Shown: piece after piece, positions 6,278-55,778 of the stretch
Layout: the number at the start of each line of letters is the position of its first letter
Position numbering within the stretch: position 1 is the stretch's first letter
Translations under genes and position numbers: made by a program
Notes under the pieces: model-generated
Told to the model about the DNA's origin: nothing
Database searches by the model: none
The model's input: the letters and a program-made list of their open reading frames with translations, nothing else
From: Girardia tigrina
Lineage: Eukaryota
Length of the DNA: 62,036 nucleotides
Assembly: GCA_001938485.1 (NCBI GenBank)
Contig: MQRK01181462.1
Location: 70,362-132,397, forward strand
Direction: 5' to 3'

Positions 6278-6368
6278 CTTTTATAACAATTTTTGAAAAA
6301 CGCTAAACTGAAACATGTACGTGTCCATGGAATATTCATTAATTTTACATATAAAACATAAATTTATA

Positions 6369-7643: not shown

Positions 7644-8354
7644 TATTCTTATTTCTAATTAGCGTTACTGAAATTGTCGATCTGCTGCTTTTAGAAGAAA
7701 ATATTAAATATCATGAATATGAATAATAAATGATTACACTAAATATAAAAGTATAAAAAATAAGTTTCTTCGGCATATGTTTACTTAAATTTACTAAATT
7801 TTAATATTAGCTGAGTTTCCTAATATAAATTTTAAAATAATGAAATACAATTTAACAAGTCTAAATGGTATGATAACACGATTCATGCAATACTTCAATT
7901 TACAAAACAAAATTTATTTTCTCATCAATTTTTATATTGTCCTCATCAAAATAATGCCGATGGGATATAATGAATCTTTACAGACGAATATCTAAGTTTT
8001 CAAAATGACGCTGAAGTGCAGGGTTTTGTATATAATTATAATCCGTAGACATTTTTTTTCATAGAATTATTAATTATTTTTTAAAAATTGGTTTCAATTG
8101 CTTGTCATTGACTTTAATATTCATTGAGAAAACACATAGGATAAATTCTTAGATTAGTGAAATGCTCTTCGTCATAAAATAACGGGAAATGAATGTTTTT
8201 TAGTTAACTTAATAATGTAATGTTATTATTACTACTGTTAGTGTGAGAGTGGGCGCAGCGCGGTCGCGGGGTTGAGTGCTCGGTGTTTCCGGGACGAGGG
8301 GGGCGGAAAAAAACAATCTTACCGGAATTCACCTACCACTCATCAATTTCGATT

Positions 8355-11601: not shown

Positions 11602-11727
11602 TTACATATTGCCGCATCGTGTGGATATTTGGAAGTAGGACGATTTCTAGTTGAGCATGATGTTCCTGTAAACATTTTGGATAAAGATGGCTGGCAACCC
11701 ATGCATGTTGCATCGTGTTGGGGTCAG
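11602..11727 (+). CDS. PPP1R16A: PPP1R16A/B-like ankyrin-repeat protein, internal exon
   Basis: ttgtag| LHIAASCGYLEVGRFLVEHDVPVNILDKDGWQPMHVASCWGQ |gtataa. Ankyrin repeats of the MYPT3/TIMAP family; phase 0/0. Confidence 0.9.
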
Positions 11728-12014
11728 GTATAATTTTATAATAAATAAATACTTTTAATATTTTATTGGTGTTATGTGAAAAATTATTAGATTTATTATA
11801 ATTCTAGGACTAATTTGTCTATATAATCTACATTATTTAATATTTTAGTACTTTATTTCTTTACATTTTTAAACAATTTTATAATAATCCATGATTTAAT
11901 TTTATAATAATAAGTAATAAATAAATATACATTTTTTAGAAAAGAATATTTTAATTAAAATTATAATTTATCATTAAAGATAAAAGTTTACAAAACATTT
12001 TGAATCTATCGGTA

Positions 12015-12015
<1 letters not shown>

Positions 12016-12063
<48 letters not shown>
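12016..12063. repeat. (AAT)n microsatellite
   Basis: About 16 perfect AAT units. Confidence 0.95.
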
Positions 12064-12064
<1 letters not shown>

Positions 12065-14547
12065 TAAAATGTTTACTAGTTCACTGTTTTAGAATAAATT
12101 ATTTCGACACTATGATAAATAAAATTATCAACTTTCTTGAGATCCTTGTGTTTGAATTTGTTTATTGTCTTAAAAGAAACGAAAAGTAAAGCTGAATCTC
12201 AGATTAACTGTTTTTTGTTAATATATTATTAATAAATAAATAGAAAAAATATTCTTATTTATTTTAAAAATCCAGAAAAAAATAATGAACCCCCTGTCAA
12301 AACCCGACCGTCGTTCGATTGTTTCAGCAGTATTTATCTAACATTGATACTTCAAATACAATCATTTTCTTTTAAATTTAAAAAGGAATCGGTTTTTCTA
12401 ATTTATATGATAATTTTCTTTCTCAACTAGCTGAAATTAATAATTTTTTTCAATTTTTTTTCATAAAATGAATGTACTCATTTTGAATATATTTAATTAT
12501 TAATAGAAAAATTATGTTCGTACAAAAAGTATGCAAAATAAGAATCATGAATTTGATCAAATATCAAACATTATAAAAAATGTTTTTTGCATATATTCTT
12601 TGATTTAGTTTTTAAAAATTCAGCCTTTAAAACAATAATAATTAAAAACAAAAAAGTAGCGAAGTATTTGTAATGAAATAGAAACAGTAAAATTTATTTA
12701 AAGAACAATTCTTCAAACTTAATATTTTCTGTACAATATCTATTTATTAAAGAACAACTTTATAAAATATCCCGCTGCACTAAAGGTACATAAACGCACA
12801 ACGACTGCGAAACGAAGAACATTGTAACTTGCATGAACTAATTTGCTCATTGACGCAAAATATTCGAAACACATGGATCTACCTTTTTTCTAACTGGTCA
12901 AGTTTATTTGACCACAGTCGTTTTTTTGGTTTAATCAAGAAGAATACATCTCCAATCTCGACGCATACGCAAACTGTAATCGAGCTAGCGTCACACCACA
13001 CACTCTTTTTTAAAGTTCAGTACTTCCTAGATACCACCAGAGGAATCCTCTGTCTTTACACGCTCTGCTGACTGTATTTCTAGATTTTAGCTCAATCAGC
13101 TTGAGATCCCTTTACGACAATCAAAATCATCCATGCATATGGTACTGTCCCTGTGAGGAATGTTTTAAATTGTGTGTTGATATTGTGCATGTTGTGTGTT
13201 GATTCGATTGTGCCTCTCCTGCACAGGTGGATGATTGGTATTTTCTTTGATTCTTATTAATTAAAAATAATTTAATTTAATGTTAAAGTAAAAAGATTTA
13301 AAATAATTTTTGAAGGTATTATTTATTTTTTAATGTAATTTAAAATTTTAATATATTAATTTAATATGTTCTTTTTTTTAAAAAAAATGTTTAGATTTAA
13401 TTTCAACCAATTAGATTCTTTATAATTAATAATTTTTATTAACAGATTTTCATTTATTGAAAATAATTAGTTTGAACTCTGAAAAATATTGATCAAGAGA
13501 GATGTCAAATAGTGAATGCGCTTGTGATTTTAATAAATGTTGTAAATCTCATATTGATGTTGTTAATAGTCCCATTAACTGATCAAAAAATGCGAAAAAA
13601 ACATTCAAAAATAACATCTTCTGCTGCCTAAATAGCCAGTCCAAAGCATTACTTCTAATCAGACTACTACTCATCTTCGTGTTAATGAAGTTTTCGATTA
13701 ACTCGTCCTGTCAAAAAATTAATTGTTAAGATACAAATTAAGAATAGTCATTCCAATTAACATTAAGTTTGGTTTATCGTTACTTTCACAAGATTTCAAA
13801 ACATTTTTTTTCTTTATTTTCAATATTTTCTGTACGACTTAGGATTTAGATTATTTCGAAAAAATGTTTTCAAAATACCTATTGAACAATATTACTTATC
13901 TGTTTTCTCAAGCAAAACATACCAAGAAGCGAATAAATCGCATGATACAAAGATTAAAACGAAAACGTGACAAATTATTTATTTATATTATCAAGATGTT
14001 TAGCATAATTTAACTTGATTATCAAATAATTGAAACACAATGTAATATAATGTAATTCAATTCACACTGGTCATTGTAAAGTACATAAAATTTAGAGTAT
14101 GTCTGACAAAAATAATTCATACTTTGGAAAAGAAACAAAAATATTTATTCGAAGAACTAATATAGTTTTAATTTCCAAAAAGATTTTTAGACATTTTCAA
14201 ATGATTATTCATAAATACCTTAACCTTAAAAATTAATGATTGAGGTATTCATTTTAGTACCCATTTTCTTGATGTATTTTTTCCCTAAATCCTTGGTATT
14301 GTGTCTGTTGGTTACAGTTCCCTTCGAATACTTTACATGATTACAGTAGGAACCAAACTGCAGGTTTGCCTATACTATTAGATCACGGATAAATAAGTGG
14401 TATATCACACCAAAAATTAAGTATTTCTTTTATTAATCCTTTAACGAGTAAACCATTGTATGATTGACATTCGGGTTACTGCTATATTTGTGCAAGTACT
14501 AGTCCAGTTACTCTTCTTGGGCTTATGTGACGTTCCTTATTTTAAGA

Positions 14548-15432
14548 CAGTGGTTCTTAACCTTTTTAGCTACCGGCACCCTTAAAATTTTCAAACAATA
14601 TTCTCGCACCCCTTACCCGAAATTATTGAATTATAAAAATTGAAAAACAAACATTATTCATAACATATTTTTTATTAATTTTATGTGCATAACAATTTTT
14701 TTAGAAATTTTAATTGTTAGCTGAAATAACCAATTATAAATGATCAAAATTTATTTTAATGGCTTTTTTGTTGTTGCTTTTCCTCAATTATTTTTGAAAA
14801 CCGGGGAATCTTTTTTGAAATAGCCACACGCATATCATTACTAGCATTAAGTCTATTTCTAGCTTTTGTTCTTATATGTACAAGTGACGAGAACCCCATC
14901 TCACACAAATACGTTGTGGCAAATGGAACAAGATGCTGAAGCGCTATTTTAGCTAATAGTGGATATGACATTACTTGAGCACACCAGAAATTTTCCAAAC
15001 TCACTGTTTCATATTCCATTTGATTGCGCCCATTTGTCCGTAATTCAACAAGATCATCTTTTAATAAATTAGTGTCATCCATTGAGTCCAGATTATAAAT
15101 AAATGGATCTAATATCCATTTTTCCGATATATCAATATCTCCAGTAGCAAAATATCCATCAAAAGATTCGCTCAACTTTTGCAAATGAGCTTTAATTTCG
15201 GTGGCATAAAATGTACAACTTTGACTGAAGAGATCAATGTTTTCTTAAAAAAAATAAATTAATAGAAAAAATTTTTATGAAATTATTTCGTGTGAATTTA
15301 AGTTTAGAATTTTTAAGTTTAGTTTTTTATTTTACTAGCTACACGTGCATTTGTATAATTATAGTTTCGCACCCCCAGATATTCTACCTCGCACCCCTAA
15401 GGGGTGCGTGCACCACCGGTTAAGAACCACTG
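14548..15432 (-). mobile_element. hAT (Buster/Charlie-type) internally deleted element
   Basis: Perfect 15-bp TIR cagtggttcttaacc and perfect 8-bp TSD ttttaaga. ORF 14756-15184 is the hAT dimerisation domain (LVPFATTYLCEMGFSSL...KARNRL...QQQKSH). Confidence 0.95.
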
Positions 15433-17496
15433 TTTTAAGACATCACACTGAAAAGACTTTTCAATAGTCAAATAAATATTGTTGATAAATTTGCTTTGCT
15501 TTGTTTTTTTACCTTTAATCGATTACCAGTAAAAATGATTTTTTTAAGCCGTTTTTGAGACAAAAATGCGCCCCAAAGGGTTAAAAATGATGAAATGTTA
15601 GTTAAAATTTTCAATTAGTAAAATAATTTATAATTTTGGAAAATTTAAAATTTTGACAAAAATTAAATAATTACATAAAACATAAAAGTACATAAAGTTT
15701 GTAAAAATAAAAAAAGTTAAAAACCATATTTTAAAAACCAATAAACGTTAAATAATTATGTAAAACAAAAAAAGTTTAATAATTAATAGGAAAATAATTA
15801 GTAAAAGTTTTAAAATAATAATTTTAAAATAAATCATAAAAACATTAAAGGGTGTAAAATTTATCATGTAGAACAAAATTATTTTGAAAGAAATCAAAGT
15901 TAAGTAAAATATTTTTACGAAATTATTTCAAAATAAAAAGTTTAGTAAAAATGAAATTTAAAATAAAAAGTTAAATATTTTTTAACAAAAGTAGAAATTC
16001 AATTTTAAAGAAAAATAGTATAGGGATTTTGCGAAATGATTATCGAAATGAAATTATCGAGAATAATTAAAATTTGTGTGTAATTTTCATAATTAATAAA
16101 TTTTTGTGTTAAATTATGAATTCTAATCTTGAATAAAACATCATCGAAGATAATGGCAATGATGTTAACAAAAATCAAACAAACATTTTTTTCTGAATTC
16201 TAAAAATATATATTTTAATTTAAAAGAACATGTACATAAACATATACAATTGAAAATTATTTTTTTACATTCACTATAACTTTCTTTATCTCATTGTCTT
16301 GGTATTACCAATTAATTCATTACATTTGATACTGTTTTCTAATAGTATCTGGCTACAAAATATTTTGATTTGAATAAGAATACTGAAGCGTAAATTTCGA
16401 CCACCTTTTCTGTATTAAAACATAACTTTTCAAGTCTCCGTCGTTTTAAATTCCTTGAAATAAAATAATTTAGATTAAATAATATTATATAAGTCTATTA
16501 TCAAGAAAAATCAGAATTGGAATTTATTTTTTAAATTCAATTTTTTAAAAGTTTAAGAGAAATTCAATTTAAAGAAAAGATCTGTTTCTTGGACAATACT
16601 TTTCCCGGGGTTTTGATTTGTGTAGAAAATATTGTTTCATGGGAAATACAATTTATTAGACCTGACATGGTATGAACAATAATTATTTTGCAAATCAAAG
16701 TTTTTAAGTCCATTTTTATCAGTTACAACTGATTATTGTTGTTTTTTTCCAAAGCTTTCAAGTAATTATGTACATGTAAGATACATGATTTAAATTTACC
16801 TGTGATAATCAGAAAGATAAATATTTATGAGCATTATTAAAATAAAGCTTTTATGGAGTCATGTTGCCTAATTTCAAAAATATCTCTAAATTAAATATTC
16901 CATGTCAAATTTCATTGAATTATTAGTTTCTTTGTCTAACGTTCTTCTTAATTGAATCGTATGTTTTTTGAATAACCATATCATCTTGATTTTTATTATA
17001 TAAATAATATTTATAATTAAAAAAACCTAAAAAATACTTATTTAATACTTATTAAATTATTTTTCGATAATTTTACTACTCGTTTTTCAATCCTTACAGA
17101 CTAATCCTTTCACTTAAGTAATTTTGTCAATTCTTTTTCTCTTAAGCTTCAGTAGTTTTTTTTCTAATCTCTTCCTTTTTCACATCGAACAGAAAAATGC
17201 TTTTTTATATTTTCTTAAAGTTTATTCAAATAATTAAATTTTTATTTATGAATTTTATAGATAAATTTATTCATTATAGTAAATAGAATTTAATTTTATA
17301 TGTACAAATATAATATGAAACAGTCATAAGAAAATCTTATAAGCTATAAAGGCTTATAATGTTATAGTATACATAAATATTTAAACGTATTTTGAATATA
17401 ATGAGATAATTGATGGTACATTTTGAAGAGGCATCCATAAATTATGTACCACATAAGGGTCGGGAACCTCTGCAACGGACTAAAATTAATAGTGAT

Positions 17497-20400
17497 TGTT
17501 AGTCGATATCTAAATTGAATTAACAATACGATTTCAAATTTGTTACCAAAAATTTATTCTGATTAAAACAAAACATAAAACATGCGAAAATTAATTGCTA
17601 AATAAAATAAACCATATTTAATGAATTTTAAATAAATTAATAAAGATTTGAATGATAATTCTAAACAATAATTTGATAATAATAATTTATAATACTTATA
17701 TTCTTCCTAACATCTCCCTTTCTTCAAAGATCTTAGCCACTCTATATTACGTATTATTTTTTTCCAACTCATAACTACGATCGTGAATCTTTTTAGTTAC
17801 TCGATATGGTCCTTCATATCTGTTATCGTCTTTCACACGACCTTCATTTTTTACTAAAACTTCCTCATTTATTTCAAAATGAATGTTTTCCCGATTTTCA
17901 TTTTGATAATTAACTAATTTTTGATTTTTTATATCTGCTTGTATTCGTTCATCTCTTGTTATTAGTTCTATCTGTGCTATTTTAAAACCGAAAACTATTT
18001 CGGCCGGACTCATTTTTAATGATTTTTATTTTAACAAAATTCCATTTCAGGAAGTATATCCACCCAATTTTGTTTCTATTTGTCTCCACTGTCGTGTTAA
18101 TATAATCTTGAATAGTCCTAAATTACCTCTCAATTATTCCATTTGTATTATGGTGGTATGGGCTTGAAAATTTTAACTTGATCTGGAACTTTTCACACAT
18201 CGTTTTAATTAATTTTGATTCAAAAGTTCTTCCACGATCAACATGAATTAACCTTGGTGCCCCAAATTTCAAAATCCAATTGTTTAAAATAGTTTTCGAT
18301 GTTGTATATTCATCTTGTTTAGTTATTGCGGTCAGTGAAACATATCTACTAAACTGGTCAATTATACTTAATATGTACTTTTTTCCATATCATTTAGTCT
18401 TAAGAGGCCCATAAAAATGAATAAAGATTGATTCAAATGGATTATTGTATTGTTGTTTGTTGATGACTTCTTTTGTTCTGGTTGTTAGTCCCTTCCTTTT
18501 TTGACACTCCTCACAATTTTCAATTATTTCCTTGACCTTTTTTTAATGTCTTTCATTGCATAAATATCTTCTATGTAATTGAGAATCTTTTCCATACCAG
18601 CATGACACAATAATAAATATTTTGAATAAATTTATCTCTTTTATTATCTGGAATCCATATTTTTTTATCTCGTGTCATTACTACTCCTTCTTTTAACATA
18701 TATTCATCTATTTCAAAATCGTTAATCCGTCTTTTAATTTCCTCAATTTCTCTACTATCCTGTTGCCATTGTATAACATCTGATACAGAAAGTATTGCTA
18801 AAATTTTGATCTTTAATGTTCCTTTTTTAGCCTCCTCGTGTTGCATTTGACATTGGAAGCACATATCACAATCTCTCCTTGATAAAACATTTGCATTTGA
18901 GTGATGCAAACCTTTTCTGTACTCTAATTTCATATCTAAACTGCTTAAAAAGTTTAGCCAAGTTTGAAACTGGGATGTTATTGGTTTCTTTGTCGTCATC
19001 ATATATGTTATAGCTTTGTGGTCCGTTCTTAAAGTAAATTGTCTACCATATAGATAATGCTTAAAGTGTTGTGTGAAAAAATAAATTACTAACAATTCTT
19101 TTCTTGTTATGCAGTATCCGATTTCGCGCTTGCTCATAGCGTGTGATCCATACGCAATTACTTTTTCATTTCCTTCATCTTCTAACTGAGATAAAACTGC
19201 ACCGGTCGTGTTATGACTAGCATCGGTATCTAAAATGAAATCCTTATAGAAATCAGGATACACCAAAACTGGTGTTTTTGTCAAAGCGTCTTTCAATTGA
19301 AGAAATGATTTCTCACATTCGTCATTCCAAAATAGTTTTTCCTTATTGCTTCCACAGAGGGTTTCCAAATTCCTTGAAAGATTGGAATATTTTTTATAAA
19401 TTTTCTATAATAATTGCACAGGCCCAAAAAACTTCTCAATTTTTTACACAGTTTGGTCTTTCAAATGTTTTGATGGATTCTAATTTATCTGGATCGGTTC
19501 TAACTCCCTGTTCATTGATTATGTGACCTAAAAATTTCGTTTTACTTTTCAACAATTGACATTTTTCTGGATTGATCTTAAGACCCGCACATTTAATTTT
19601 ATATAACAATTTATTTAGTTTCAAAATATGTTCGTCCATGGTCTTTGAAAATACTAGAATATCATCTAAATAGACTAACTCCCTTCCATAACATATCACC
19701 CAAAACCGTGTTCATCAGTCTTTGAAAATTTGCAGGAGCTGCCACTATTCCAAATGGCATGCGGTTAAAACAAAATTGTAGAAAAAGCCTTTTTCAATTT
19801 TCATTCTTCGTCTAACTCCACTTGGTAATACGCATTTCCTAAATCAATGGTGCTGAAGAAACGAGCTCCATTAAGCGAATCCAGCATTTCCTCGATGTTA
19901 GACATCGGATAAACTTGTCTTTTGATCACTTTATTTAATTGCCTAAAATCCAAAGAAAGTCTAATTTCCTGTTTGTCTTTTTTTCCACACACAAACCATA
20001 GGTGTGTTCCTGGATGAATTGCATAGTTTTATTATGTTATTGTCTTCCAGATTTTTTATCAATTCTTCAATTTTATTTTCTAAATTTGTTGGTTGTCTTC
20101 TCAGTTTCATGAAAATGTGATCACCCTTTGTAACAATTGTGTGTTTCAAAAGTTTTGTGCAACCCACATCCCATTTATATGCCATAAATACATCAACATG
20201 TTTTTTTATTATTTTATAGAGTGGAGAGTCTAATCATATTTTCAATATCTCCACAATATTTTTTAATTTGATACTATTTGGTACCTGTAATCCAAATTTA
20301 GCACTAATACCACAGTTACTTTGATCCAAATTATTTCAACTTTCATTGAATATTTCTTTTCCTATTTTTAAGTGAATATTGAAGGCATTTAAAAATTACA

Positions 20401-22200
20401 CACCACATATAATGGAAGGCGATACTTCTTCAGCAATATAAAATTTAATCAATTTATAAATTTCACCTATTTAAATTTTTAGAACGACAATTCCTAGTAT
20501 GTCTAATGCACTTCCATTAGCGCAAATAATATTATCATTATTGTTTTTATTTGGAATTATTCTTAACTTATTAACTACATCCTTACTCATAATATTTATA
20601 CGGGCACCTGTGTCTAGTACACAAGAAAAATATTGATCGTTACATTTAATTACCATCTGGGGTCTTCCATCAATTTTATCATATTTTATCTTCATATTAC
20701 ATAATTTAGATTTTAAAATATTGACATCCCTATTATTACACAATGCGGTTGACACTTAATTTTATCATTTGATGCACAAATGTCAGACATGTTTTGTAAT
20801 CGGTCAGTATTACGATTATCTTCTATTGGGTTAATATTATCTAATTTAAAATTAAATATTTTGCTTTTATCCCTATTCTTTAATACAGATACATTATTTA
20901 CAGACTTCCTGTATTTAGATCATCACTACTTTTAAAATATTTATTAATATCAATATCGTTATTATAATTATCATTCAAAAAAATATTATTATTACAATTA
21001 TCAAATAAAACATTACTATTTACACAATTACAATACTTTAAATTACAAATAAATGGTTCCAAAAATTTCTTACATGTTAAGAAATGACTCCTATCACTTC
21101 TCGCCTTGATGGAGCCTGATCGTTTGGGATCTGATCTTTTTCCTGCTGTTCCCCATCATAAGTCCCGATCTCTTCACAATTGTCGTCTAAAACCGCAATG
21201 TTTTGTCTCGTTCTGTTAACATTCATTCCAAAATAATTTCTCTGTTTTTGATAATCTCCTTATCGTTTCTGCCAGCACTGAAAACTAAAATGACCATATT
21301 TTTTACAATGACTACACTTTATATTTGGACATTCTCTTCGGATATGTTCATGTTCTTGACATGCATGGCATTTGATTTGCTTGTCGGGACAATTTCTGCT
21401 AACATATCTCTCTTTCTGACAGCTCCAACATACAACTGGGTTTCTCGAATGTTCATTGTTTGCATGATTCCATTTTATTCTTTCCATAGGTGGTTTTACT
21501 AACCGTGAATTTGAAAATTGTTGGTGCTTTTGTACGATTTTGGCAAACGTTTCTTTTGGATTGACTGCTGATATTTGAATTGATTCTTCTTCTCTTTCAA
21601 TACTGTCAATCTTCCGAATAACTTCTTTGATCTGCTCCACGTCATTGGTATCTCGTAAACATAATGTACCAAAATACGCCATTAATTCTTTGTCATCCCA
21701 TTTAATTTGACATTAATTTTTTTAAACTATTTTTCCGATTTTATCGCTCCATCCGAACCTTTTTCTTATGAATATCAATTCATAAAATCCTGTATTAACG
21801 ATGAAGGTTTGGAAAATGCTCTTCTGTCTTTCCTCATACTCCACGATATTTGGGTCCACTTGTTCATATACTGGAATTAAATCTCTGGAATGAAATGCCT
21901 TAACCATAATTCATTTTAGATTTGGGTCGGTGCCGGATACTTCGAAAAATCATCTGCATTCTTCGATAAATTCTTCTAAATTATTTTCTACATTGTAAGT
22001 TTCGGGAACCAGATTCTTCCAATTACTGAACGTGGTCGCCATGTTAGTCGATATCTAAATTGAATTAACAATACGATTTCAAACTTGTTACCAAAAATTT
22101 ATTCTGATTAAAACAAAACATAAAACACGTGAGAATTAATTACGAAATAATTGGAACCATATTTAATTAATTTTAAATAAATTAATAAAGATTTGAATGA
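17497..22200 (-). mobile_element. Ty3/Gypsy LTR retrotransposon, near full-length, degenerate
   Basis: 3' LTR 17497-17712 (TG..CA) with adjacent PPT gaagaaagggaga; 5' LTR 22042-22200 truncated; PBS tggcgaccacg. Gag with three CCHC-like knuckles, protease VLDTGA, RT YLDD, RNase H DTDAS/TDHKA and integrase with EGPY, in Gypsy order. Many stops and frameshifts. Confidence 0.95.
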
Positions 22201-22540
22201 GAGCGATCATATTGATGTAGACTTTGTTGTTTTTTGAGAACATCGATGATTCTATATATTCGGATGGGCCTCCCATCTCTCTCCCATGCTTCGGGGAACT
22301 CTGCTCTTCCCTCCCAAATGGCTTCGAAACATTGCATGATCTTGATTGTTAACTGGTGGCCTCCCCACTTAAATAACTCTGGGATGATACCGTTGTTCCC
22401 AGCAGCCGTGCCGTTTTTGAGTTGTTTTATTGCGGTACCTACTTCTTCTACGTCTGGTAAGTAATTGATATCCAGTTGTTGACTTTGTTCCAAATCCATG
22501 ACATAGTCTCCTTCATTCTTTTTGAATAGGTTCGAGATTC
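22201..22540 (-). mobile_element. LINE (RTE-like) reverse transcriptase fragment abutting the truncated Gypsy 5' LTR
   Basis: EEVGTAIKQLKNGTAAGNNGIIPELFKWGG...FPEAW is the non-LTR RT domain-0 motif. Confidence 0.8.
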
Positions 22541-23989
22541 AATATATATTCGGGTAAAGTGTACCACACATTTGCACGAATCTCTGATACCCACCTTCAA
22601 TATAATTATTGAAACCAAGAATTAATAAAAATAATTATAATTAAATTCATTTTAAAAAATGTTCATTCTGATTTTACAAAAGTAAATTAACGAAACGTTT
22701 TCTGAAATTCGGTATTAATTAAATAAAGATGGAGGAAAATACTTTAACTTTTGTCAACGAAAAGAAATGAAATGTAAATGATGATAACAAATGAACTAAG
22801 AAACAAATTACATCAAGATTGATTGACCTTAAAAACATTTTTTTTAAGAAATTTTTGTACAAGATTCTTAACTTTAGGAGAGAGAATCTATTCCTGACCA
22901 ATTTCTTTTGTTCTTGTGAACCAACATAAAAATCTACCAAAGAAAATTAAATTTAACAAGAACCAATAATATTTACGTATATATTAGTGTTCTTCGATGT
23001 TCTTCACAGTATGAAATATTCGATTTTTGTTCCTGTTAGATAAGACGACTACCCATTTTCGGATAATTTTTTAAGTATAAGGGGCCATCTTATCGAGAAT
23101 AACGAAAAGAACAATTTATACTAAAAAACTAGTTCCTTTTCGAAATTCCTCCAACTTACACGATTTAAAATCTATTAAGATAACTTTAACAGAATTTCAT
23201 TTGCGGCATTAGATTTATTAGAAATGTTAATCCCCAAACAGACACTTATTAAAATTAATTGACAGTTTGAATCTAATTGTTGGTATAATTTAATTATTTT
23301 TTGTGCTTCATAATGCATAATAATATTATTTGGAAGAATTATTATATTTTCTTTCAACCAATTCGTCATTGTTCGAGTATAAAATTGTAGCAGTTGACGA
23401 TCGTATAGAAAAATGCTTTATTTTGATTTCTTTAGACTGTAAAGTTTAGAGCAAGAATCACTATAAGTTTTATAAAGATTAATTAATTTATTTAAAACAA
23501 GTTAACAATTATATTGCGTATTTGAATTGAATATTTACCAAGATTCAATATTGCTCTGTGTGAGTTCGTATTAATTTGGTTATTATTATTACAAATCGTT
23601 ATGTAACACTTCGTTTAAGTACTTTCTGGATCAAAGTTTGAATATGCAATCTAGCTTACCGGTAGACTTGGCACAAAATCTCAATCAAGAAAATAAAAGA
23701 ATGTTATTTTTTGTTCCGTTACAGAATTGTCTATACATTTTCTTTAATAATCTATAATTGAAAGATAAAGCCCTGTCCCTAAATGTATTACTTATTACGA
23801 AAATAATTAATGATACTTAAGATGTAGAGCATTTATTCTCACAAAAACTGACGTGAAAAAACAACTTGTACATGACATTGCTTATTTAAATGCTCTGAAG
23901 GGTTTATATGATTTAAGAAAAGTATGTATAGAAATATAGGTAGTGACATTTGTTTTAATAGTATCCAAACTTCATAGTCTTCTCTCGAA

Positions 23990-24375
23990 GAAACCGAGAA
24001 CTGTTTGTGTTTTACAAGCTAATCCTGACCTTAATCCCATAGAAAACTTGTGGAACATCATGAAAATAAGAGTGGCAGTCAAACATCCCTCTAATGTGGA
24101 TCATCTAAGAGATTATTCAACAAGTTTGGAACGAAACACTCTCACCAGACCAATGTTTCGCATTGTTCGCTATCATGCCTCGAAAAATTCAAACGGTGTT
24201 GAAAAGCAAAGGAGAACATACAAAGTATTAAATGTAGTAAAAATTACTTTAAAATGCTTTCTTTTCTATATACATTGGTAAATTTAGTGAATTAAGCTTT
24301 TCTTTGTCAATGGGAACACAATATTTTTGTACCTTATCATTTTTTGACAATATTCCATGTCAATGGCGGCAGCTG
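23990..24375 (+). mobile_element. Tc1-like transposon 3' fragment
   Basis: NPDLNPIENLWNIMK motif; ends in TIR-like ...atggcggcagctg-ta. Confidence 0.75.
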
Positions 24376-26829
24376 TAAGTAGTACAAAATAAGGTTATAG
24401 TATTATTTTCTATGAATTACATGTATACTTAAACGTGGTAGTAAAAGAGAAACAAATTATAATGTAATCGATTAAATGATTGATCAAACTGATTAACGAT
24501 TAAATGCGAAAAGTAAAATGTTTAATATAAAAGTATGTAAATAAAGAAAAATGTTTCAGTGTTAACTGTAACCCAACTTTTGACCTACACCGTATATATG
24601 AGATTGTATTTAACAAATTTGAAAATTATAAACATTAATTGTTGATGAAAAACAATTAAAAGTAAAAAAATATAGTTTAAAAACAATTACCAAGAAAAGA
24701 CTCAAATAGAAAAGTAAATTATTTTTTTTTAATTTTAGAAAATTGTTTTATCTTTTTTTTGTTAATTTTTTCTTATTTGCCAGAAATACTTTAACAAAAT
24801 AAATTTAATATAGACATTTTCTCTTAGTTAAATGCGTTATTTGAAAAATAATTTGTGTTTGATACCAATATAAATTCAACAAAAGTTTTTTTTAAATAAT
24901 ATACTTTTAATTTAAAAAAAATCATTGAAAAAATGGAGCTAAGAATTTCAAGCATTATTAAAAAATTGACCTACAGGCTATTCTCTCTTAATCAAAAATA
25001 TTGTAAAAAAATGTTTTTCCTTTTTTGTCAAAAATAATATTTTATTATTAATTAAGAATCAAAAAATAAAGAGATATTTATTTGTCATAATAATTTTAAC
25101 ATATTCTCATCAAGAATATTTATCAGACTAAATATTTACTTTTTATATGTTCTTAAGTGTCACTTTAGTGTTTTTTGGCGAATATAAAAACATATAAATG
25201 ATAAAATTGAAGAAAGAATATTGATGTATTTAAAAATTTCTAATTTATTTGTTTAATATTTATATGAATGAACTTTTTGTATTTAAAGACTATCGGTCAA
25301 TTGGACAAACTCCTCAAAACTATTTCCTTGAATTAGATTTACTCTCCTCTGATTAAATTGTTACGAAAATTTATTCTGTTGGGTATTACAATTAAATCTC
25401 GTTTATATCTTTGTTTATATTAAACTACTAATCTGACTCCAAATCGACCAAAAGGTTTCTTCCAACAATAATATATGAGGAATGAACACAAATCTTTTTA
25501 ATAAACTTTATTTGAAAATTACAACTTGAGCACAAAACTGAAATCGAAACTTTATCGCTAAATTAATAGTTTGAAGCACACTCAATCAACACAAATCAAT
25601 ATCAATTTAGAGTGAGCGATATCTGAAAGTCAAACTTCAATCTTTCTCCTTTACAGGATACTAGATTGGTTAACAAAAATTAAATAAAAAAGATTACCGT
25701 AATACATGAAGTTTAAAATCTTTAGTAGGGTCTGCAAGTATAATTTTGTCCGAAAATTTTGTGTGAATAATACTAAAATAATAATTGTTTATATACTAGT
25801 TTTTTCAAACCTTGAATATTAGTTTGCTAAAACAAATCTAAAAATATTTACAAATATTATACAAATTTTATTAAAATAATGTAAATCGAAAATTATTGAT
25901 TTTTTAACAGAGAATTATTTTTAATTAATTTTTTACACAACTTTTTGATTAAACATTTAAATTTATATTTTGAAACCCCAACAATTCTAATGGTCTCATT
26001 TTACAAATAGTATTATCATAATTAAGCACAATTTTATAACTCTTCTCCACTCCACAAAGAATTTCTCAAATATTGTTAATTTTGTCTAAGATTTTTCAGT
26101 CTTGTATGACTATTTACATAATTATTTAAAATGTGTTTTCTTGATAAGAAGTTTAAAAAACTTCAGCCTGTCGTTTAATTTTATTTGTTCTTGAATACCA
26201 GGCGATCTAAAGATACAGTTATTGGAACATAAATTAACCAAACTTTCTTGATAACATAACTTTGTAAATACAATCATGAATGAAATGGTTTAGAAGACCT
26301 AAAAGGTACAATGGTTTTTTGAAAATAACTTTCAATGGTAGTTTTTTTTAAAAAAAATAGTTTTTTAATAAATTGCTTTAATTAAAAAAACATTTAGTCG
26401 AAATAATTTATTTTACTAATTTAATTTTCTTTATTTGAGAAAAATTTTAAATAACTATAGAAATAAGTTTTAACAAATTCCACAGCTTTTAAAATGATTT
26501 TGAAAGTTTTAAAGCAATTTAACAGAAATTTGAAACTATTTTCCTAAAATCTGAGGAAAATATTGTTTCAAAATTTTTGTTAAAAATAAATATTATTGTT
26601 TTATTCAATACAAAATATTTTAATTAATAAAATAGTTATTAATAAATAAATATACGAAAACTATATAATCTTTATTTGTAATATATATGTAAAATAAAAA
26701 TAATTTAAATTTAAAACAATTAAAAATGATTATAAAATTTAGAATTATTTTAATTTTTACAATTAAACTTGATAAAAGATGGTAATTTTTTATTATAAAC
26801 AAATAAACGCCATTTGAAAATATATTTTA

Positions 26830-26870
26830 GGATAATATATTTCGACGGTTTAACCGTCATCATCAGATCA
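26830..26870 (-). ncRNA. Minimal type I hammerhead ribozyme (Penelope tail)
   Basis: Minus strand: tgat CTGATGA t gacgg-ttaaa-ccgtc GAA atatat t atcc. Core boxes, stem II and palindromic helix III are present; stem I has 3 bp. Confidence 0.7.
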
Positions 26871-27481
26871 CTGATTATGTTCTTTTTTATTGCTTTTATA
26901 TAAGAAATAAATGATTATGTAATCACTTACGTAAGTCTAATCAAAAACTCTTAACAAATTAGTTGAGAATGCTGTTTGAACATTGATTTTAGGATCACAT
27001 GATCTTATCAACAATGCTTCACATGACACTCTCCCAATAATTTTGAAAATGCTTGCACACAATCTGAAAATCATTTATGCTCATATTACATTTACACGTT
27101 TTTTATGCTCAGCAATATTACTCTTTCCCCCTCTTTGACTGTGTTCTGGGACTCTTGCAGAGATGACGGACAGTCTCTCCGATGTATGTGACAGTGCACC
27201 CATTACATGTGTATTGATAAAGCAATGTCCGAACACAATCCTAAAGGAGTATGTGATTTATTGCAAAAAATATTCTCAACTTTAAATGATTGAGAAATAA
27301 TTTTTGAATTTAAAATATTATTTGTTGATTTCAAGATCGAATTCTTGAGGTGTTTAAAACCCTCGGAGTAAGGTAAGCTTAGAGTATACCCAGGTGTAAA
27401 GCAGTTTTCAATGTTTAAACTATTAATTTGTCATTATTGATTTTTTCTTTTCCAATTATTTTATCTACAGAACATAATCAG

Positions 27482-27522
27482 TGATCTGATGATGACGGTT
27501 AAACCGTCGAAATATATTATCA
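27482..27522 (+). ncRNA. Minimal type I hammerhead ribozyme (inverted Penelope tail)
   Basis: tgat CTGATGA t gacgg-ttaaa-ccgtc GAA atatat t atca. Stem I tgat/atca; predicted cleavage after AUU at 27518. Confidence 0.75.
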
Positions 27523-27846
27523 TGAAATATATTTTCAAATGGCGTTTATTTGTTTATTTTAATTTTTCTCGTGATTTTTTTTAATTTGTCAAAAAATTCA
27601 TAAAATCAATAATAAAAAGTTATATTACATTAATTTTATTTAGAAATTTATGTATAAAAAACTGCGAATAAAAGTATTAGTATGAAAATAATTTAACAAA
27701 AATTGTTTCATAGAAAACTAATACTGTGAAAAAAGTTTCTATGTAAAAAATTTTGACACAAAAAATTTTGATGATAAAATTCGAATGAAATAATAATTGA
27801 ATATCATTACAATTACATTTCTTAAAATATCTACATTTCTTTTTAG

Positions 27847-27922
27847 CTTGAATTCATCGAATTTCTGTTGGTACGTGGAGCTGATATAGATGCGACGACA
27901 CATTCTGGAGAAACTGTTTACG
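27847..27922 (+). CDS. PPP1R16A: PPP1R16A/B-like exon (end of last ankyrin repeat)
   Basis: ttttag| LEFIEFLLVRGADIDATTHSGETVY-g |gtttgt; phase 0/1, continues directly from WGQ. Confidence 0.9.
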
Positions 27923-27974
27923 GTTTGTATAAATTTCAATATATTTAATATTAGGATATCGAAATATATTATAG

Positions 27975-28116
27975 AAGTTTGTGAAGATCCAGAAATCAAT
28001 CGCAAATTACACGAACTAAAACTAGAAATGGCTCGAAAAATTGAGGTGAAAAAGTCTCTCCAAGTCAGACCGTCATTATCTACTATAGGGCGTCGAAGTA
28101 ATTCACATAAAAGAAG
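27975..28116 (+). CDS. PPP1R16A: PPP1R16A/B-like exon (coiled coil)
   Basis: Follows a 52-bp GT-AG intron: (E)VCEDPEINRKLHELKLEM...GRRSNSHKR-ag |gtatat; phase 1/2. Resembles the family motif DVCGDEEVRAKLLELK. Confidence 0.9.
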
Positions 28117-33178: not shown

Positions 33179-34770
33179 TTTTTTGTCTGTGAGCAAAAGT
33201 GCCAGGTTGTTACATGAATTCATTTGCACCATGTTTTGGGCGGAAGCAGTCTTTAACATGTGCCCTGTTTTTCACAGGGGTTCTTTACTCGCGGCCTCCC
33301 CCTGCACCATTTAATTGGGTGATCGTTTCCGCCAAGCCCGACACTTCTACTCACCACCCTATCAACTCATCATCGGAGGATAATTCTTCCTCCCATGATG
33401 GGTTGTTTTCATCCTCAGACGAGTCTCCAACCATTCTCTTATATGGGTAGGAGACTTGTAGTTCGTCGTCAGATGATTTGTCATCCGGACTTGATCTTCT
33501 TCACCCCCTATTGTACTCGAATCCTAAAGGTGTATGACTGATGAGTGCATGTAGGGCGGCTGGATCAAAATCCTCTGTATCCTTAGACTCTGCATGCTCA
33601 TAATCCCTTTCCTCTATCATGAGCATCGATTCCTGATTTTCTTCCATGTCCACTACCACTATTTTTCTTAATCTCTGAGTCCCACTAAGGATAACATCGT
33701 CCCGGTGATACGTCCATTGTGCTGCCGAATATTTAACATTTGATACAGAGCAGCCAATTGTAATTCGTCGTATCACCTTAGTGGGATCTTTAGGGTTCTC
33801 AATATATCGGTGCTTCTTTTCGGAAAAGTTCCTAAAGCACCTACCTGAAGAGTGTGCTCCGACACCGTGGTTTCCGGCATGGCCCGACGGCAAATTTCCA
33901 CCAAGTTCTGGTAATGGTCCAGATTCCTGGTGTTGCTGTTCTCCATGTTCTTTTTCGCACCATATGGGCATTTTACATCAATTATATATAGGGTCTTTGA
34001 TCCTAGCACATAAACTTGCAAGTCTACTCGGTCTTTCGAAGGTGCATATTGACACTCAGTATCTATGTCCACTGTGCAATCAAGATACTGAGTGATTTTC
34101 TCTCCTACACATTTGAGGACCGAGCTGTGCCTATATTTCCAGAAGCCCTCACCAAACCGAAATCCGGTCAATACGTGGGCAAGTGTTTCCTTATCATTGT
34201 GCCACCTACAACAGTGACCCCTGTTCCTTGTACTGCCTGGGCGGTAATTAACAGAAACTGTGTAAGTCATCACCTTTTGGTAGAAATACCACTCACTCTA
34301 ATTCAACCCCCCATAAACAGCGCCGTGGAAGCTAATTATAGAAATCAGACTTCTCGCAAATCGACCGGCACTGCTTAGTTTCATCCATTTGTGTGTCCAG
34401 GATTTCTCTATTCTCTACCAGTCTTCTTAAAATCCTGGACACACTTTCCTTCAGGAGGGACGTGAGCAGTATGTTCTCGTCCGTATCATCTCTTATAGTC
34501 TACGTCTACCCATTCGGAAGTGTCCTTTCCCATAAAATGGATTGGTTGAGATGAAGACATATTCCTTGTTCATTCTGCACCAGATTTACATCAATTTGGT
34601 GCAGTTTCTTAATCTTATGTATGGCGAACTTGATCTTTGCCCACCAATTCTTAATCTTCCCTGAAGTGGTTCCTGTGTTGAACCAGTCCAATGCATCCTC
34701 AATTGACGATAAGTTCCACTTTCGTGGACCTGTTCCACTCTGGAGGGAGAAGACCACTGCGTCCATAGTC
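33179..34770 (-). mobile_element. 5'-truncated non-LTR retrotransposon with restriction-like endonuclease (NeSL/R2/R4-type)
   Basis: Degenerate CCHC knuckle CRWHNDKETLAHVLTG, RH motif, (P/V)DL...IIDVKCPY, LQVGALG; acidic tail, 3' UTR and short poly(A); frameshifted. Confidence 0.85.
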
Positions 34771-35172
34771 ATAGTAATTTTTAATAAATGAATAATTTAA
34801 AAATAATATTTGGAAAATAAAATTCAATATTTTTTATAATTAAGTTATCATTAATTATTTAAATTGTCGATAAACATTTAAAAATTTAATTATTTTAAGA
34901 TACTTTTGTGTTGTAAATGAATTTCTTAATATTTTTCTCTTTAAGGAATGTAAGTTTTATGAATATCTTAAAATAGGTTTCTTAAAAAAATAAAAAAAAC
35001 GTGCGATAATTTTTTTTAGTAAATTAATTTGAGTATTTAAAGAAATTGATATTATTATTATATTTTTCGGATTTTACAGTTTCTACAGGAATAAATTAAA
35101 AGTATTTTTTTTGTAAATGTTGTAAAAATTACAAAACCCTCACTAAATTGATTTTAGAGAGCTTTACATATA

Positions 35173-35312
35173 TCTGTTGTCTTTCTGCATCATTCAGTTC
35201 AATATTTCCCATTCATCCTAGTGACCAGTAAATAATAAAATTTCTTTTCTCTACATTCTTGTCATTAGGATGAAAGGGTAATATTGAACTGAAGTATACA
35301 GAAAGATAACAG
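35173..35312. repeat. ~140-bp hairpin with ~50-bp arms next to a Penelope remnant
   Basis: tctgttgtctttctg...ttcagttcaatatttcccattcatccta pairs with taggatgaaagggtaatattgaactgaa...cagaaagataacaga. Confidence 0.7.
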
Positions 35313-35359
35313 ATTCAGGTCTATATGCAACAATACAGAGCTTTTGTGAGGACACATAC

Positions 35360-35900
35360 AGTGATCGTTTTATAAAGGGGTTAGTTCACAGAGTTTAAAA
35401 TTTGTCTTCCAATTTTAAAATCACAAACTATAGTTTAAAAATACTTAAAGAACGCTTGAGGGACACATTTACATAAATAAACAGATAAATCAAAACACTA
35501 GGGTTACATTAAACAAATTATGTACACAAATATGAGTTACAAAATGACTAAATTAAGAAAACATTGAAGATCACAAAGAAATAATCAAAATACCATATTC
35601 TTAAGGATTTAAACCATTTAAGACGAGTATGTGCAATAATATAGGTATTGTCAAAGTGGTTTCAAAGACATCCAAAGTTGCACTCAAGTAAATATAAAAC
35701 GATGTGTGGATTGCAAGCTAATCTGGTTTATCAATGTAATTGTCACTGCTTTAAAAATTCGTACATTTGAGAGATAAATCGTCATCTAAAAACACGGATT
35801 AGTGAGCATTTAGAATCAAGTCAATCAAGTAAGCTTCTTGATTATTGGTTTCACTGTGCAATAGAATCTATTTTATTTGCTCATGGCAGAAAAAAATTTC
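35360..35900 (+). mobile_element. Penelope-like element remnant (RT thumb and GIY-YIG)
   Basis: FIKGLVHRV*NLSSNF and LQANLVYQCNCHCFKNSYI*EINRHLKTRISEHL. Confidence 0.75.
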
Positions 35901-41058: not shown

Positions 41059-41060
41059 TA

Positions 41061-42433
41061 TAGGATTATTCATAATTATATACCCATCTATTCAAAATTA
41101 TATATCCATCTATTCAAAATTATATACCCATTTATTCATAATTATATACCCATTTATTAGTATTATAGACAAAATAAATATTATTAAATTATTTTTTTAA
41201 TTAAGATTGAAGAAGATCTTAAAACGACAAACGGATAATAATGATTTATTTTACCAAGAATTTAATTAAATAAAATCTTCTCTTCTTCTAGCTCTTTCTA
41301 GCCATCTTCTCATATTTATAAAAAAATTTTCGACATTCCTGCGAATAATCATTTCTCGAACATAAAATCGAGTCTAATGTAGCCTCAATACATATTTCAC
41401 TGTTAGTATTTCTGGCCGAGTGATATCTAGATTTTATCATCGATAAAAATTCTTCGATTGGATTTAATTCTGGGGAGTACGGAACTGTATATTTTACTCG
41501 AATATTTCTGTTTTGAAAATATTGAGCTAAGAGTGCGGATTTATGAATGGCAGCATTGTCCATTATAAGTATTTTAGCGGGATTTGCCATTAGATAACTG
41601 CCCAAACCATTATTCAAAAACTCATTAAAGGTTTCTGATGTAAACGAACCTTGTTTATATTGATAAAACAATAAGCCTGAATCGTCAATGGCGCACATCA
41701 AGCTAATATTTTTTCCTTTGTTGGCATCTACATTTAAATGTGCCTTTGTATTTACGAGTGAATATCCATAGGATCTTGTCGTGTGTTTATTAAATCCCGT
41801 TTTGTCGAGAAAACAAGATTAGAATCCGAGATTCTACCGAGTTCGCATGCATAAATTGCTCGCATGTCTTTTTTATCTTCTGTATTTCTTTGTTTTGGCA
41901 CTAAAGTGAGCCGTCTTCTCCTTATTTGCATTTTGGATAACTTTCGCGATATTGTTATATTTTCATGATTCTCATTGATTGTAGCTAATTCTTTCTGAAT
42001 CAGACTATTATTACAAGAAACTGAATTAAATATCAATTGATCGATATTATTAAAAGTATTCTGTCTTATTCGGCATGTTTCCCTCATCTTGGTTGATGAT
42101 GACACGAATTCTTTCCCGTTTTCGTGATTTTGTATTTGTTTCCTAACCGTTTTACGATCGAGATTCAAAATATCGCAAATATATTTTATTGAGTGGCTTT
42201 GGTTATGATTCATGGAAATAATTACATCATAAATATCTTTTGTAATAGTTTTTCTTTCTTTTCTAGGTATTTAATAAGGCGTAAAAGTCTAAAAATATAT
42301 TAATTAAATTTTTTAACATTGGGTATATAATTTTGAATAGATGGTTATATAATTTTGAATAGATGGTTATATAATTTTGAATAGATGGGTATATAATTTT
42401 GAATAGATGGGTATGTAATTATGAATAATCCTA
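41061..42433 (-). mobile_element. IS630/Gambol-like DD34E transposon, full-length, with TIRs built from 22-bp tandem repeats
   Basis: TA flanks; termini taggattattcataatta; about 4 left and 5 right copies of attcaaaattatatacccatct. Frameshifted transposase (42213-41752 and 41701-41288) with ILIMDNAAIH...YSPELNPIEE. Confidence 0.92.
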
Positions 42434-43807
42434 TATTGTTATAGTAAAAAATCTAACTTTAATGACCTAAATATGCCAAAAAAGTGAAAAATTAACAAAA
42501 ATCAGAACACAATTAAGCTTCATAGTCCATAGCTTCTACTTTGAAGTTCATCTATCTATTTATCAGATATTCGTCCAGTCAAAAACCAAGTTAAAAGAAG
42601 TCACTAGAACATCAACAATATTTAATTAGTTCTAATATTTATAAATCTCATTAATAAAAAAGTCTTTTAATTTCCTTTAAGAAATTGATAAGAAATATAA
42701 TGTTTTGTTTATTTATTTATTTGGTTTGCGTAAAAATAAAAATATAATATTTATTTATGTATTAATATAATTATTTATTTATTGAAAATTTCATAAAAAA
42801 ACGAAATGCTGGCGGGGAAAATTAGGTTTTACTAAACATTTAGACAGTGTTAATGTCTAGAAAGTTTTTGTTTTTTAAAATATTTGATAAATATAATTCT
42901 AGTTAACTTTCAGAAGATTTTCATAAGTGTTTCTATGTGATAAATAAATTTATTTGTAAAACTCAATCAATAAATGTAAAAAATATTTATTTAATTTAGT
43001 TAAATAAAAAAAACTACTAAAATAAATTTTACTAAATAACTTGTTTTCATATTTTGTAATATTCTTTATCAAAAATATTTTTTTATTTGGTTATTGTCTT
43101 AAAATGCTTTTAAAATATGCAGTTTTATTTAATATTCTTATAAATATTTTTTTTAAGAAATTAAAATATATGACTTAAATATAGTGTATTAAAATTTCAT
43201 TTAAAATCAAAAATTGATTTATTAAAAAAACACATTTTAAAATAAATTTATGTTTATTTAATAATAATTTTCTTTTTTCGAAAAAAATTTCTAAATAGTA
43301 ACTAAAATTTAAAAAAAATTTCTCTAAAGATATTTAGAATAATCTAAAAATAATCGTATTATTTAGAATTTTCAAGTTAATAATCTTTGGGACTTTATTT
43401 TCATTTAATAATAATTTTCTTTATCTATTTTATAATTTTGATGAAAAAAATCGAATTTTTATATTTAACAAAATATTTTCTAAGAATTTAATTTTGCTTG
43501 TTTAAATTGCTTTTTATCTTAATTGATAATTAAAATATATTTTTTTCTCTTTTACTCTGTCAATTTTGATATATCAAATTACATTTATTAAATTATTAAA
43601 GATTTTCAATTTTAATAAATATTTAGATTTCCAAATAAAATAATTTCACGCAATTAAATTGGGCGACAATTTGTAATGGTTTTTGATTTGTTTATAATAT
43701 AATATATTGAGGACTGTTTTGTCTTATCAGTTTTTGATAGCACGATTTGTAATGTATATGCAATTATATATTCATTATTTTACATTAAATTAAAATTATA
43801 TTTCCAG

Positions 43808-48326: not shown

Positions 48327-49195
48327 TATATATCTGCCTTTATAAGAAAGTCTATAAAGAATTTTTATATATGACAATAATAATTCGTTATGTCCTTGTA
48401 GTTCTCTTTGGCCGCCAAAATTTACATCTTCTACTTTATTATGACAACTATTTTCTGGTGACTGATTCTCATCTCATGAGTCTGGGAAATTTGTCATATT
48501 TGTCTTGATGTCTCTCTTTAATTTCATAAAATATACAATGACTGGATTGAGGAGTATGAATAATGGGCAAGTATACCATTTGATGATTAAAATACTGCAT
48601 CTTAAAAACTTTAAAAACTTAAAAAATTATGGTGCTTCCTCATTCGCATTATTACGAAATGAATATTTTTCATTACGATGTTTTATTATTCTAATCCTTA
48701 AACTTCCATATCATATGTTATAACCTAATTTCTATAATATTTTTATACTAATATTAAAGTTATACTTCAATAAATTTAAACATATTCCTTTAATCATTTA
48801 ATCTGCTTGGAAGGGCTCGCATTCTGGAAAAGGTGCTCAAAGGGATTATATACATTATTTCTAACTATTTATAATGAATATGCAACTTTATTTAATTATT
48901 ATATTGACGAGCCAGAAATATTTTAGAGGCGCTTTTAAAATCACAAACATAATTATAAAATAATTATGGTTCTTGTATCACCTGAACAATTAATATTATA
49001 TGAAGATTATAATTTTATTAACACAAAAACATTTTTATTTTTCTGAAAAAAATATTAATTTTTATTTATTCGTAAACCTCATAGCAGCATATAATTATAA
49101 TAAATGTTTAAAAAAATTAATAATTGATAAATATATTTTCTTTAACAATGAACGAAATTAGAGTAATGATGCTAACAAAGATTTCACTAATTTAG

Positions 49196-53068: not shown

Positions 53069-53069
53069 T

Positions 53070-55384: not shown

Positions 55385-55778
55385 CATTAAGACATTCTTT
55401 AATTGGAAAAAAAACATCAAATTGTAGTTAAGGAAAATATGATTAAATATACGATTTAAAAAGTAAAACATTTATTTATTATCATTTAAATTCTTCTAGA
55501 AATAAGTTTAGTAAAAATTTAAATTTCCTGTAATTAAATTAAAATTTAACGAGAAATATCAGTGTAGTGAATTAAAAAAATCAAATCAAAATAATTTTTT
55601 TAATAACAAAAAAACGATTAAAAAATAAAATTGTGAACGTAGTGATCGAAATGTAAAAATAAAAATTCGAGCGAAAAAAAATTAGCAAATTATATCAAAA
55701 ATATACACTTGTTTAAATAAGCTCAATATTTACAAAACTCGAACTACATAATCAAAAAAAAACAGTTAAACTCTAATC

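Follow-up and report, generated by a model that had tools for sequence, protein, structure and literature searches.

The question raised by this locus of Girardia tigrina is whether two hammerhead ribozymes lying in the intron of a host gene act on that gene or are the ordinary remains of a retroelement. The window, i.e., the whole stretch of DNA analysed, comprises 62,036 nt of contig MQRK01181462.1 (assembly GCA_001938485.1, positions 70,362 to 132,397, forward strand), and all positions below refer to it. Very probably, positions 26759-27553 are a 5'-truncated copy of a high-copy Penelope-like element (PLE), in which the hammerheads are likely passengers of the end repeat: their predicted folds are inactive, and a function in the host gene is unlikely. 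Indeed, the layout of the two hammerheads is that of a canonical PLE insertion, described since at least 2013-2014 (PMC4209133, PMC3846280, and PMC8557442).

The element lies on the minus strand of the host intron and is an endonuclease-bearing copy, frameshifted five times (near 27430, 27222, 27154, 27098, and 27028). It is flanked by a target-site duplication (TSD) and carries two pseudo-long terminal repeat (pLTR) arms around the end of an open reading frame (ORF) for a reverse transcriptase (RT) and endonuclease (EN). Its parts are the following:

26745-26758, no strand: left TSD copy of 14 bp, TTATTTTAATTTTT, an exact 14-nt match to 27554-27567
26759-26794, minus strand: PLE tail of 36 nt, confined to the sense (3') side, with the left TSD copy and the inverted arm as its neighbours
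26759-26860, minus strand: likely start of the element ORF, its ATG being hammerhead A9-U-G10.1, 34 codons open to the tail end
26795-26883, minus strand: sense pLTR arm with a minimal hammerhead (C3 at 26866, stem I of 3 bp, predicted cut after 26834)
26884-26936, minus strand: 3' untranslated spacer, from the ORF stop to the arm
26937-27468, minus strand: 5'-truncated end of the ORF, RT-EN linker and GIY-YIG endonuclease (from protein homologues and indels relative to other copies)
27469-27557, plus strand: inverted, 5'-truncated pLTR arm with a minimal hammerhead (C3 at 27486, stem I of 5 bp, predicted cut after 27518)
27554-27567, no strand: right TSD copy, 14 bp

The two arms are inverted repeats with 87/89 letters the same and a spacing of 585 nt. 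The plus-strand arm is in sense orientation in the host pre-mRNA, and its final 4 nt overlap the right TSD. None of the random intron window pairs used as a control (0/2881) reached 14 nt of duplication. The tail is supported by the family depth, which runs on to the left of 26795, and by an RNA contig (X3) aligning from 26757. The left junction is crossed by a DNA contig that differs at 2 places in 326 nt. A preliminary description of this DNA had placed a Penelope insertion inside the host intron at 26795-27557. The insertion itself is borne out by the TSD, the tail, the inverted pLTR, and the endonuclease homology, whereas its limits had to be moved to 26759-27553, with the 36-nt tail and the 14-bp TSD.

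Read on the minus strand, the sequence that separates the arms codes for the last part of a PLE protein. The decayed GIY-YIG fragment proposed there is real: in tblastn against RT/GIY-YIG homologues, the main pieces align in three frames with 43-65% identity (weaker pieces lower; best E 2e-30, with P0002), and the five frame breaks coincide with indels relative to other family copies. With the linker piece as query, 12 proteins were retrieved, nine of which were scanned by Pfam. Among these, P0003 reaches the GIY-YIG cutoff, four more give weak matches, and P0010 also carries RVT_1 (E 2e-11); P0009 and P0012 were set aside because they look like unrelated repeat proteins. The PLE-type RT is absent from the truncated copy, to which P0010 is 44-48% identical over the shared part. 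The five ORF pieces of the window alone gave no GIY-YIG match in Pfam, three word-based protein searches found nothing, an Atlas search with the linker returned only scores below 0.9, and the phage collection held no match. By inspection, the linkers of the window and of P0002, P0003, and P0010 contain no extra zinc-finger motif, a feature that, by the criterion of PMC8557442, speaks for the Penelope/Poseidon clade. The stop codon of the ORF is at 26937, 71 nt ahead of the sense hammerhead, and the inverted copy is at the truncated end. As for the other end of the ORF, its start likely lies at the A9-U-G10.1 ATG, by analogy with the matching position in PAc of the anole; the 34-codon frame opened by this ATG stays open in 884/20000 shuffles.

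Each arm holds, in this order, stem I, CUGAUGA, a bulged U, stem II of 5-6 bp (GACGG(U)/(A)CCGUC), GAA, AUAUAU, U, and stem I. A strict descriptor of core and stems (both boxes, stem II of at least 4 bp, and stem I of at least 3 bp) has exactly 2 matches in the 62-kb window and 0 in each of 12 shuffles. Both core boxes, stem II, and a palindromic helix III are present in each inverted arm, as had been described. The bare sequence pattern is not above chance in the window (6 observed vs 3.0 expected), and no Rfam hammerhead model matched the window, either at the gathering score or at E up to 10. The proposed check by descriptor or Infernal search thus came out positive for the type I descriptor and negative for the Rfam models. 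Stem I, announced as 3-4 bp, has 3 bp in the minus arm, whereas in the plus arm it has 5 bp, including one G.U. The arms show the features of type I PLE hammerheads (CUGANGA and GAAA boxes, a UH cut site, a nucleotide between 9 and 10.1, G10.1-C11.1, and palindromic 15.2-16.2), in agreement with minimal hammerheads of the dimer type, and the predicted site coincides with the proposed cut after 27518 in the plus arm. The descriptor found one motif per strand, i.e., no same-strand partner in the 62-kb window.

The data on the family come from the contigs of 4/24 listed runs (including the DNA run X1, the RNA runs X3 and X10, and X15). In X1, the unique flank has a depth of ~55 and the element one of 0.68-1.57 million; this ratio of 12,000-28,000 suggests a family of ~10^4 copies, counted in summed contig depth, which is not the true copy number. 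The depth of the element is lower toward its 5' end. Six of the 15 joints listed (of 88) are opposite-strand joints with other breakpoints, one of them inside the hammerhead. Since these joints are so varied, inverted arms of differing length are a routine product of the family.

The variation of the arms fits the hammerhead reading. Among the variants listed, changes fall at N7, loop II, 1.1 (A>G, which keeps G.U), and positions 53-55, 67, and 87, and none falls in the boxes, stem II, or the palindrome; coding overlap could add to this sparing of the core. As to covariation of the stems within the family, these variants include only the wobble-compatible change at 1.1 and no change in stem II. 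The copy itself decays neutrally, with no sign of selection: its private coding changes in the endonuclease part are 9 non-synonymous to 1 synonymous, against 4:7 for the family-polymorphic ones (Fisher p 0.024), and its private divergence of 2.0% predicts 3.6 differences between the arms, where 2 are seen. The preliminary description had noted that the cores are identical despite the frameshifted ORF. A reading of this as unusual, or as a hint of selection, is not supported, as two random differences spare the 13 core letters with p 0.73, the decay is neutral, and the layout is canonical; the lack of indels in the arms likewise has p 0.20.

Other traces of such elements were seen beside this copy. 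The window has two much older PLE fragments, at ~35230-35870 (plus strand) and 3270-3490 (minus strand), with no hammerhead found near either by the descriptor, and a 57-nt inverted repeat (35172-35314) overlaps the start of the former. In the runs X7-X20, word shares of 0.10-0.17 occur under other organism labels and leaf-litter RNA, and in X15 the endonuclease region is represented by just six short pieces, which have diverged (3-7 differences per 33-59 nt). These matches could be relatives of the family and are not evidence of horizontal transfer.

Folding predictions suggest that the hammerheads are held in inactive structures in three ways, namely, by the duplex between the arms and by two local hairpins:

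27477-27490, plus strand: predicted hairpin AUCAG/CUGAU burying the CUGA box, present in both arms (central pair probability 0.95)
27509-27535, plus strand: predicted 10-bp hairpin formed through a second AAUAUAUU 15 nt downstream (P 0.84-0.94)

The ~89-bp duplex between the arms, part of the initial proposal, is borne out by the fold prediction: in the isolated 763-nt RNA, it reaches -135 kcal/mol, with 85/89 pairs at P>0.9 on one strand and 84/89 on the other. The second hairpin is predicted to hide GAA, helix III, and the cut site. It is present also in another copy of the family (an X10 contig), and the second AAUAUAUU palindrome is a trait of the family. For the arm, active-like folds have P<0.001 and are less stable than the minimum by ~10 kcal/mol; for the dimer, the gap between the active and the best form amounts to 29-33 kcal/mol, shrinking to 10-12 once both hairpins are trimmed. 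Given the head-to-head geometry, transcription of either strand reaches the antisense arm before the sense one. The duplex of the arms, the two local hairpins, and the lack of a same-strand partner in the window together lead us to predict that cleavage is off in this copy and that cleavage of the host pre-mRNA is negligible. Because the RNA 27470-27557 is itself predicted to take an inactive fold, a negative cleavage result with it would not refute the motif.

A plausible course of events can be put together from these data and from what is described for other PLEs. The RT-endonuclease would nick the two strands of an AT-rich target with an offset of 10-14 nt. The long end would be copied from a distal RT start (the tail end, ~102 nt into the likely ORF) over a run of ~710 nt, and the short end from a proximal start (~62-66 nt in) over 85-89 nt, the two truncated products then being joined head to head. 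On either strand, the antisense arm would be made before the sense hammerhead, which would be captured by the 89-bp duplex or by the local hairpins. Such a copy would make no protein, and the intronic double-stranded RNA (dsRNA) would be a by-product that at most contributes to silencing of the family by small RNAs.

A metagenome scan for the same core gave at least 105 stretches with 94 distinct motifs. Among the matches listed, stem I has at least 3 bp in 57/94 and stem II at least 4 bp in 65/94, while partner swaps (n=2000) gave at most 24 and 27, respectively, with the relatedness of the motifs not controlled. Among the same matches, an inverted second arm occurs upstream in 23/49 motifs with at least 700 nt upstream, versus 4/61 downstream, and the second arm, on which the scan did not select, keeps the core in only 17/36 pairs. 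Arm boundaries and TSDs are resolved for 9/36 of these pairs, too few for use, and no PLE ORF was detected beside the at least 105 motifs. The hairpin of the second palindrome over the cut site recurs in 1/94 other motifs, and the upstream anti-CUGA hairpin in 9/95 against a background of 5.1, which does not make it clearly general; the frame opened by the A9-U-G ATG is mostly short in the other motifs (median 9 codons), all these counts again being among the matches listed. Two viral loci with type I hammerhead-like motifs, a bulged U, and a GACGG/CCGUC stem II (one motif at L001:3001-3031, and two at L002:3001-3031 and 3361-3391, all on the minus strand; the two of L002 are 360 nt apart on one strand) were rejected as members of this family for their long non-palindromic helix III and are left out of all counts.

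The host gene can be described from the exons flanking the insertion:

11602-11727, plus strand: upstream host exon with an ankyrin repeat (Pfam Ank families), 3' edge at 11727, GT donor at 11728
11728-27846, plus strand: putative host intron of 16.1 kb holding the insertion, drawn from the in-frame join of the flanking exons
27847-27922, plus strand: host exon after the insertion (RNA depth rises at bin 27844-27899)
27975-28116, plus strand: next host exon (X10 and X3 contigs of 2266 and 1841 nt, 0 differences over 27974-28116)

The upstream exon matches residues 203-244 of the MYPT1 chain 1s70_B. RNA contigs of X10 and X3 have the GT..AG joint 27921>27974, so that the short downstream intron is spliced out, and splicing at 27847 is normal in these two RNA data sets, which may or may not come from carriers of the insertion. 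A search for RNA contigs over the unique intron flank found no cover and is uninformative. The plus hammerhead had been placed in sense orientation in the host pre-mRNA, 325 nt before the 27847 acceptor; intron, acceptor, and distance are all right. The host had also been named PPP1R16, which is plausible in view of the MYPT1-like ankyrin exon and of a CCVVM end. The ORF 49196-49675 ends in CCVVM, and this exon presumably belongs to the host gene. MYPT-type ankyrin repeats combined with a C-terminal CAAX are the mark of PPP1R16 (MYPT3/TIMAP), which is thus a candidate subfamily for the host. An Atlas search with the ankyrin exon returned only generic ankyrin clusters.

Near the insertion, 13 nt of the hammerhead 3' half (CGAAATATATTAT) recur exactly at 27960-27972 on the plus strand, inside the 52-nt intron 27923-27974. 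The match ends 2 nt before the next acceptor AG, and apart from the arms the window has no further copy of it. Pairing with the palindrome would be possible, with a stem I of only 2 bp; the match is probably due to chance.

Several points weigh against the reading of the insertion as an inert PLE copy. No contig spans the whole of it, and at least 31 nt on both sides are covered at the left junction only. The size of the family is known through summed depth, and the family RNA, at 36-77x the host exon depth, comes from unstranded contigs and is not locus-specific. Tertiary contacts, proteins, and the kinetics of folding during transcription across 585 nt do not enter the folding models, and the PLE origin of the metagenome look-alikes is something that we infer. 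Moreover, the arms differ at 53 and 55 (C-T-A vs A-T-G over 53-55), both letters being common in the family, and they share at position 67 a letter carried by ~4% of the family depth. Simple decay of a single template explains these haplotypes poorly, because independent mutations would seldom produce such a pattern. The haplotypes could be accounted for by two templates that stem from one source locus or by patchy gene conversion, the two being indistinguishable here. We tentatively consider, as a possibility with the odds against it, that in a single insertion event each arm was copied from an end-repeat template of its own, which would make the locus a fossil of priming at both ends by a dimer of the PLE RT-endonuclease, with the duplicated palindrome serving as a latch until the element protein refolds the hammerhead. 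A literature search combining Penelope and twin priming returned, judging by titles and the start of abstracts, nothing on PLE inversions, which is not proof of novelty.

Other explanations can be weighed against the same evidence. The duplex in the pre-mRNA may yield small interfering RNAs (siRNAs) or adenosine-to-inosine (A-to-I) edits that add to the silencing of the family. This is compatible with an inert passenger copy, and we regard it as possible but rather doubtful: the duplex is strongly predicted, the host gene is expressed, and siRNAs occur at inverted Penelope regions of Drosophila (PMC3681739), but the duplex here is short, intronic, and one among thousands alike. The search for A-to-I edits suggested in the preliminary description did not favour it, as A>G/T>C places number 11 and 9 in DNA contigs against 12 and 9, and 11 and 9, in RNA contigs, in what is a weak, family-level test. 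That the host has turned the sense hammerhead and its antisense arm into a switch for cleavage or splicing of the PPP1R16-like pre-mRNA is very unlikely indeed. The sense orientation at 325 nt from the acceptor, the intact core, and arms free of indels where the ORF part has 5 would suit such a switch, but the core identity and the indel-free arms are both compatible with chance as calculated above, the copy is only ~2% diverged from the family, no partner in cis is present in the window, and splicing at 27847 is normal in the two RNA data sets mentioned, with the reservation on carriers made there. Furthermore, an X1 contig with a depth of 28.7 (left-junction contig: 31) joins 26628 to 27572 with 10 other letters between; this half-depth joint hints at a haplotype without the element and without 130 nt of the left flank; it is not a clean empty site.

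Very unlikely, too, is a monomeric ribozyme, in which the second AAUAUAUU would give a 7-bp helix III in cis and the cut would fall after 27533 instead of the dimer cut after 27518. Its hairpin is in register and stable, both differences between the arms fall inside the 7-nt hairpin loop (post-hoc p 0.005), and its energy of -8.1 is near the -8.6 of the fold for the first site. Yet it requires a U.U mismatch beside the cut, and the G-C pair of its stem I depends on the letter of this copy, 96% of the family depth having U (26816, arm position 67). In addition, the two stem I positions of the first site that lie in the loop are without listed variation while the next three vary, and the minimum-energy fold pairs GAA into the helix. 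The monomeric fold has P ~0.0002. Finally, the near-perfect terminal inverted repeats, together with several DNA transposons with such ends in the window, could recall a DNA-transposon-like element, or an assembly artefact. This is hardly conceivable, as the interior is a PLE endonuclease, the depth drops toward the 5' end, the joints differ between copies, the tail is one-sided, and the left junction is bridged by the DNA contig reported above.

The rest of the window holds a variety of other repeats. Transposase-bearing DNA transposons with terminal inverted repeats are found at 47062-48329, 6366-7646, 59135-60457, and 41059-42435, the arms of the last being 22-nt tandem repeats, with an array of similar period at 515-818. 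By ORF inspection, two decayed LTR-retrotransposon gag-pol remnants lie on the minus strand (~17700-21700 and ~51400-53200). ORF pieces at ~33500-34800 (minus strand), for which no Pfam match was obtained, presumably resemble, by a motif, the terminal part of a non-LTR element that bears a restriction-like endonuclease. At 55770-56708 (plus strand), a GC-rich intronless ORF resembling the HSP90 N-terminus stands in AT-rich surroundings and turns into unrelated sequence after ~200 codons; it is possibly a retrocopy, a foreign insert, or a misassembly.

As it stands, the insertion is one of probably thousands of copies and matters little. It is a clean teaching example, with TSD, tail, inverted pLTR, and a hammerhead over the likely ORF start, and its family could be useful for two questions open in the literature, namely, how the inverted pLTR forms and what PLE hammerheads do. 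If the arms did come from two templates, ~10^4 young copies would make the formation of the inverted pLTR directly testable. Co-option, if true, would be of real interest as an intronic ribozyme switch derived from a retroelement.

Among known systems, the element most resembles an endonuclease-bearing PLE of the Penelope/Poseidon clade: a C-terminal GIY-YIG, of the kind with a Cys/His motif, after the RT (in homologue P0010), 5' truncation, a head-to-head inverted pLTR, a one-sided tail of 36 nt, a TSD, an AT-rich target, and pLTR plus tail overlapping the likely ORF start. Indeed, inverted pLTRs, TSDs, and tails of 30-40 bp are typical of PLEs (Arkhipova et al. 2013, PMC3846280; Craig et al. 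2021, PMC8557442). The TSD here is 14 bp long (10 without the arm overlap) versus 8-10 bp in the rotifer examples, and, unlike in those elements, the inverted junction has no palindrome. The hammerheads match the dual minimal ones reported on opposite strands, 100-700 bp apart, in metazoan PLEs (Cervera and de la Pena 2014, PMC4209133), for which an unpaired nucleotide, a palindrome, an inactive monomer, and a weakly active dimer are also reported. The unpaired nucleotide 9/10.1, G10.1-C11.1, the long helix II, the short helix I, and the palindromic 15.2-16.2 are shared, whereas that paper, in its accessible part, says nothing of a second AAUAUAUU 15 nt downstream that folds into a hairpin across the cut site.

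In PAc of the green anole (Frangieh et al. 2024, PMC11167929), both DNA strands are cleaved and extended, two RT start sites bound the tail, and the hammerhead cuts only with the element protein. In the present copy, too, the likely ORF start falls at the base of stem II and the predicted cut follows 26-27 nt further on; there are likewise two end positions with the tail between them, and the target contains ATT. The RT starts of PAc are 111-118 nt in, while here the tail ends ~102 nt into the likely ORF, as read from DNA sequence. In Drosophila, siRNAs map precisely to the inverted regions of rearranged Penelope copies (Evgen'ev 2013, PMC3681739); those regions, like the present arms, are able to give dsRNA, with the differences that the arms here have just 89 nt and that the siRNA evidence is theirs. 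The non-LTR retrozymes (bioRxiv 10.64898/2026.07.22.740005) share with the copy a type I hammerhead of likely PLE origin and are non-coding same-strand tandem repeats, in contrast to the coding fragment with inverted arms found here; such an identity was rejected for this locus, which has one motif per strand and a coding fragment between. In Xenopus, 42-44% of the retrozyme copies overlap introns, and thus an intronic site like the present one is not rare.

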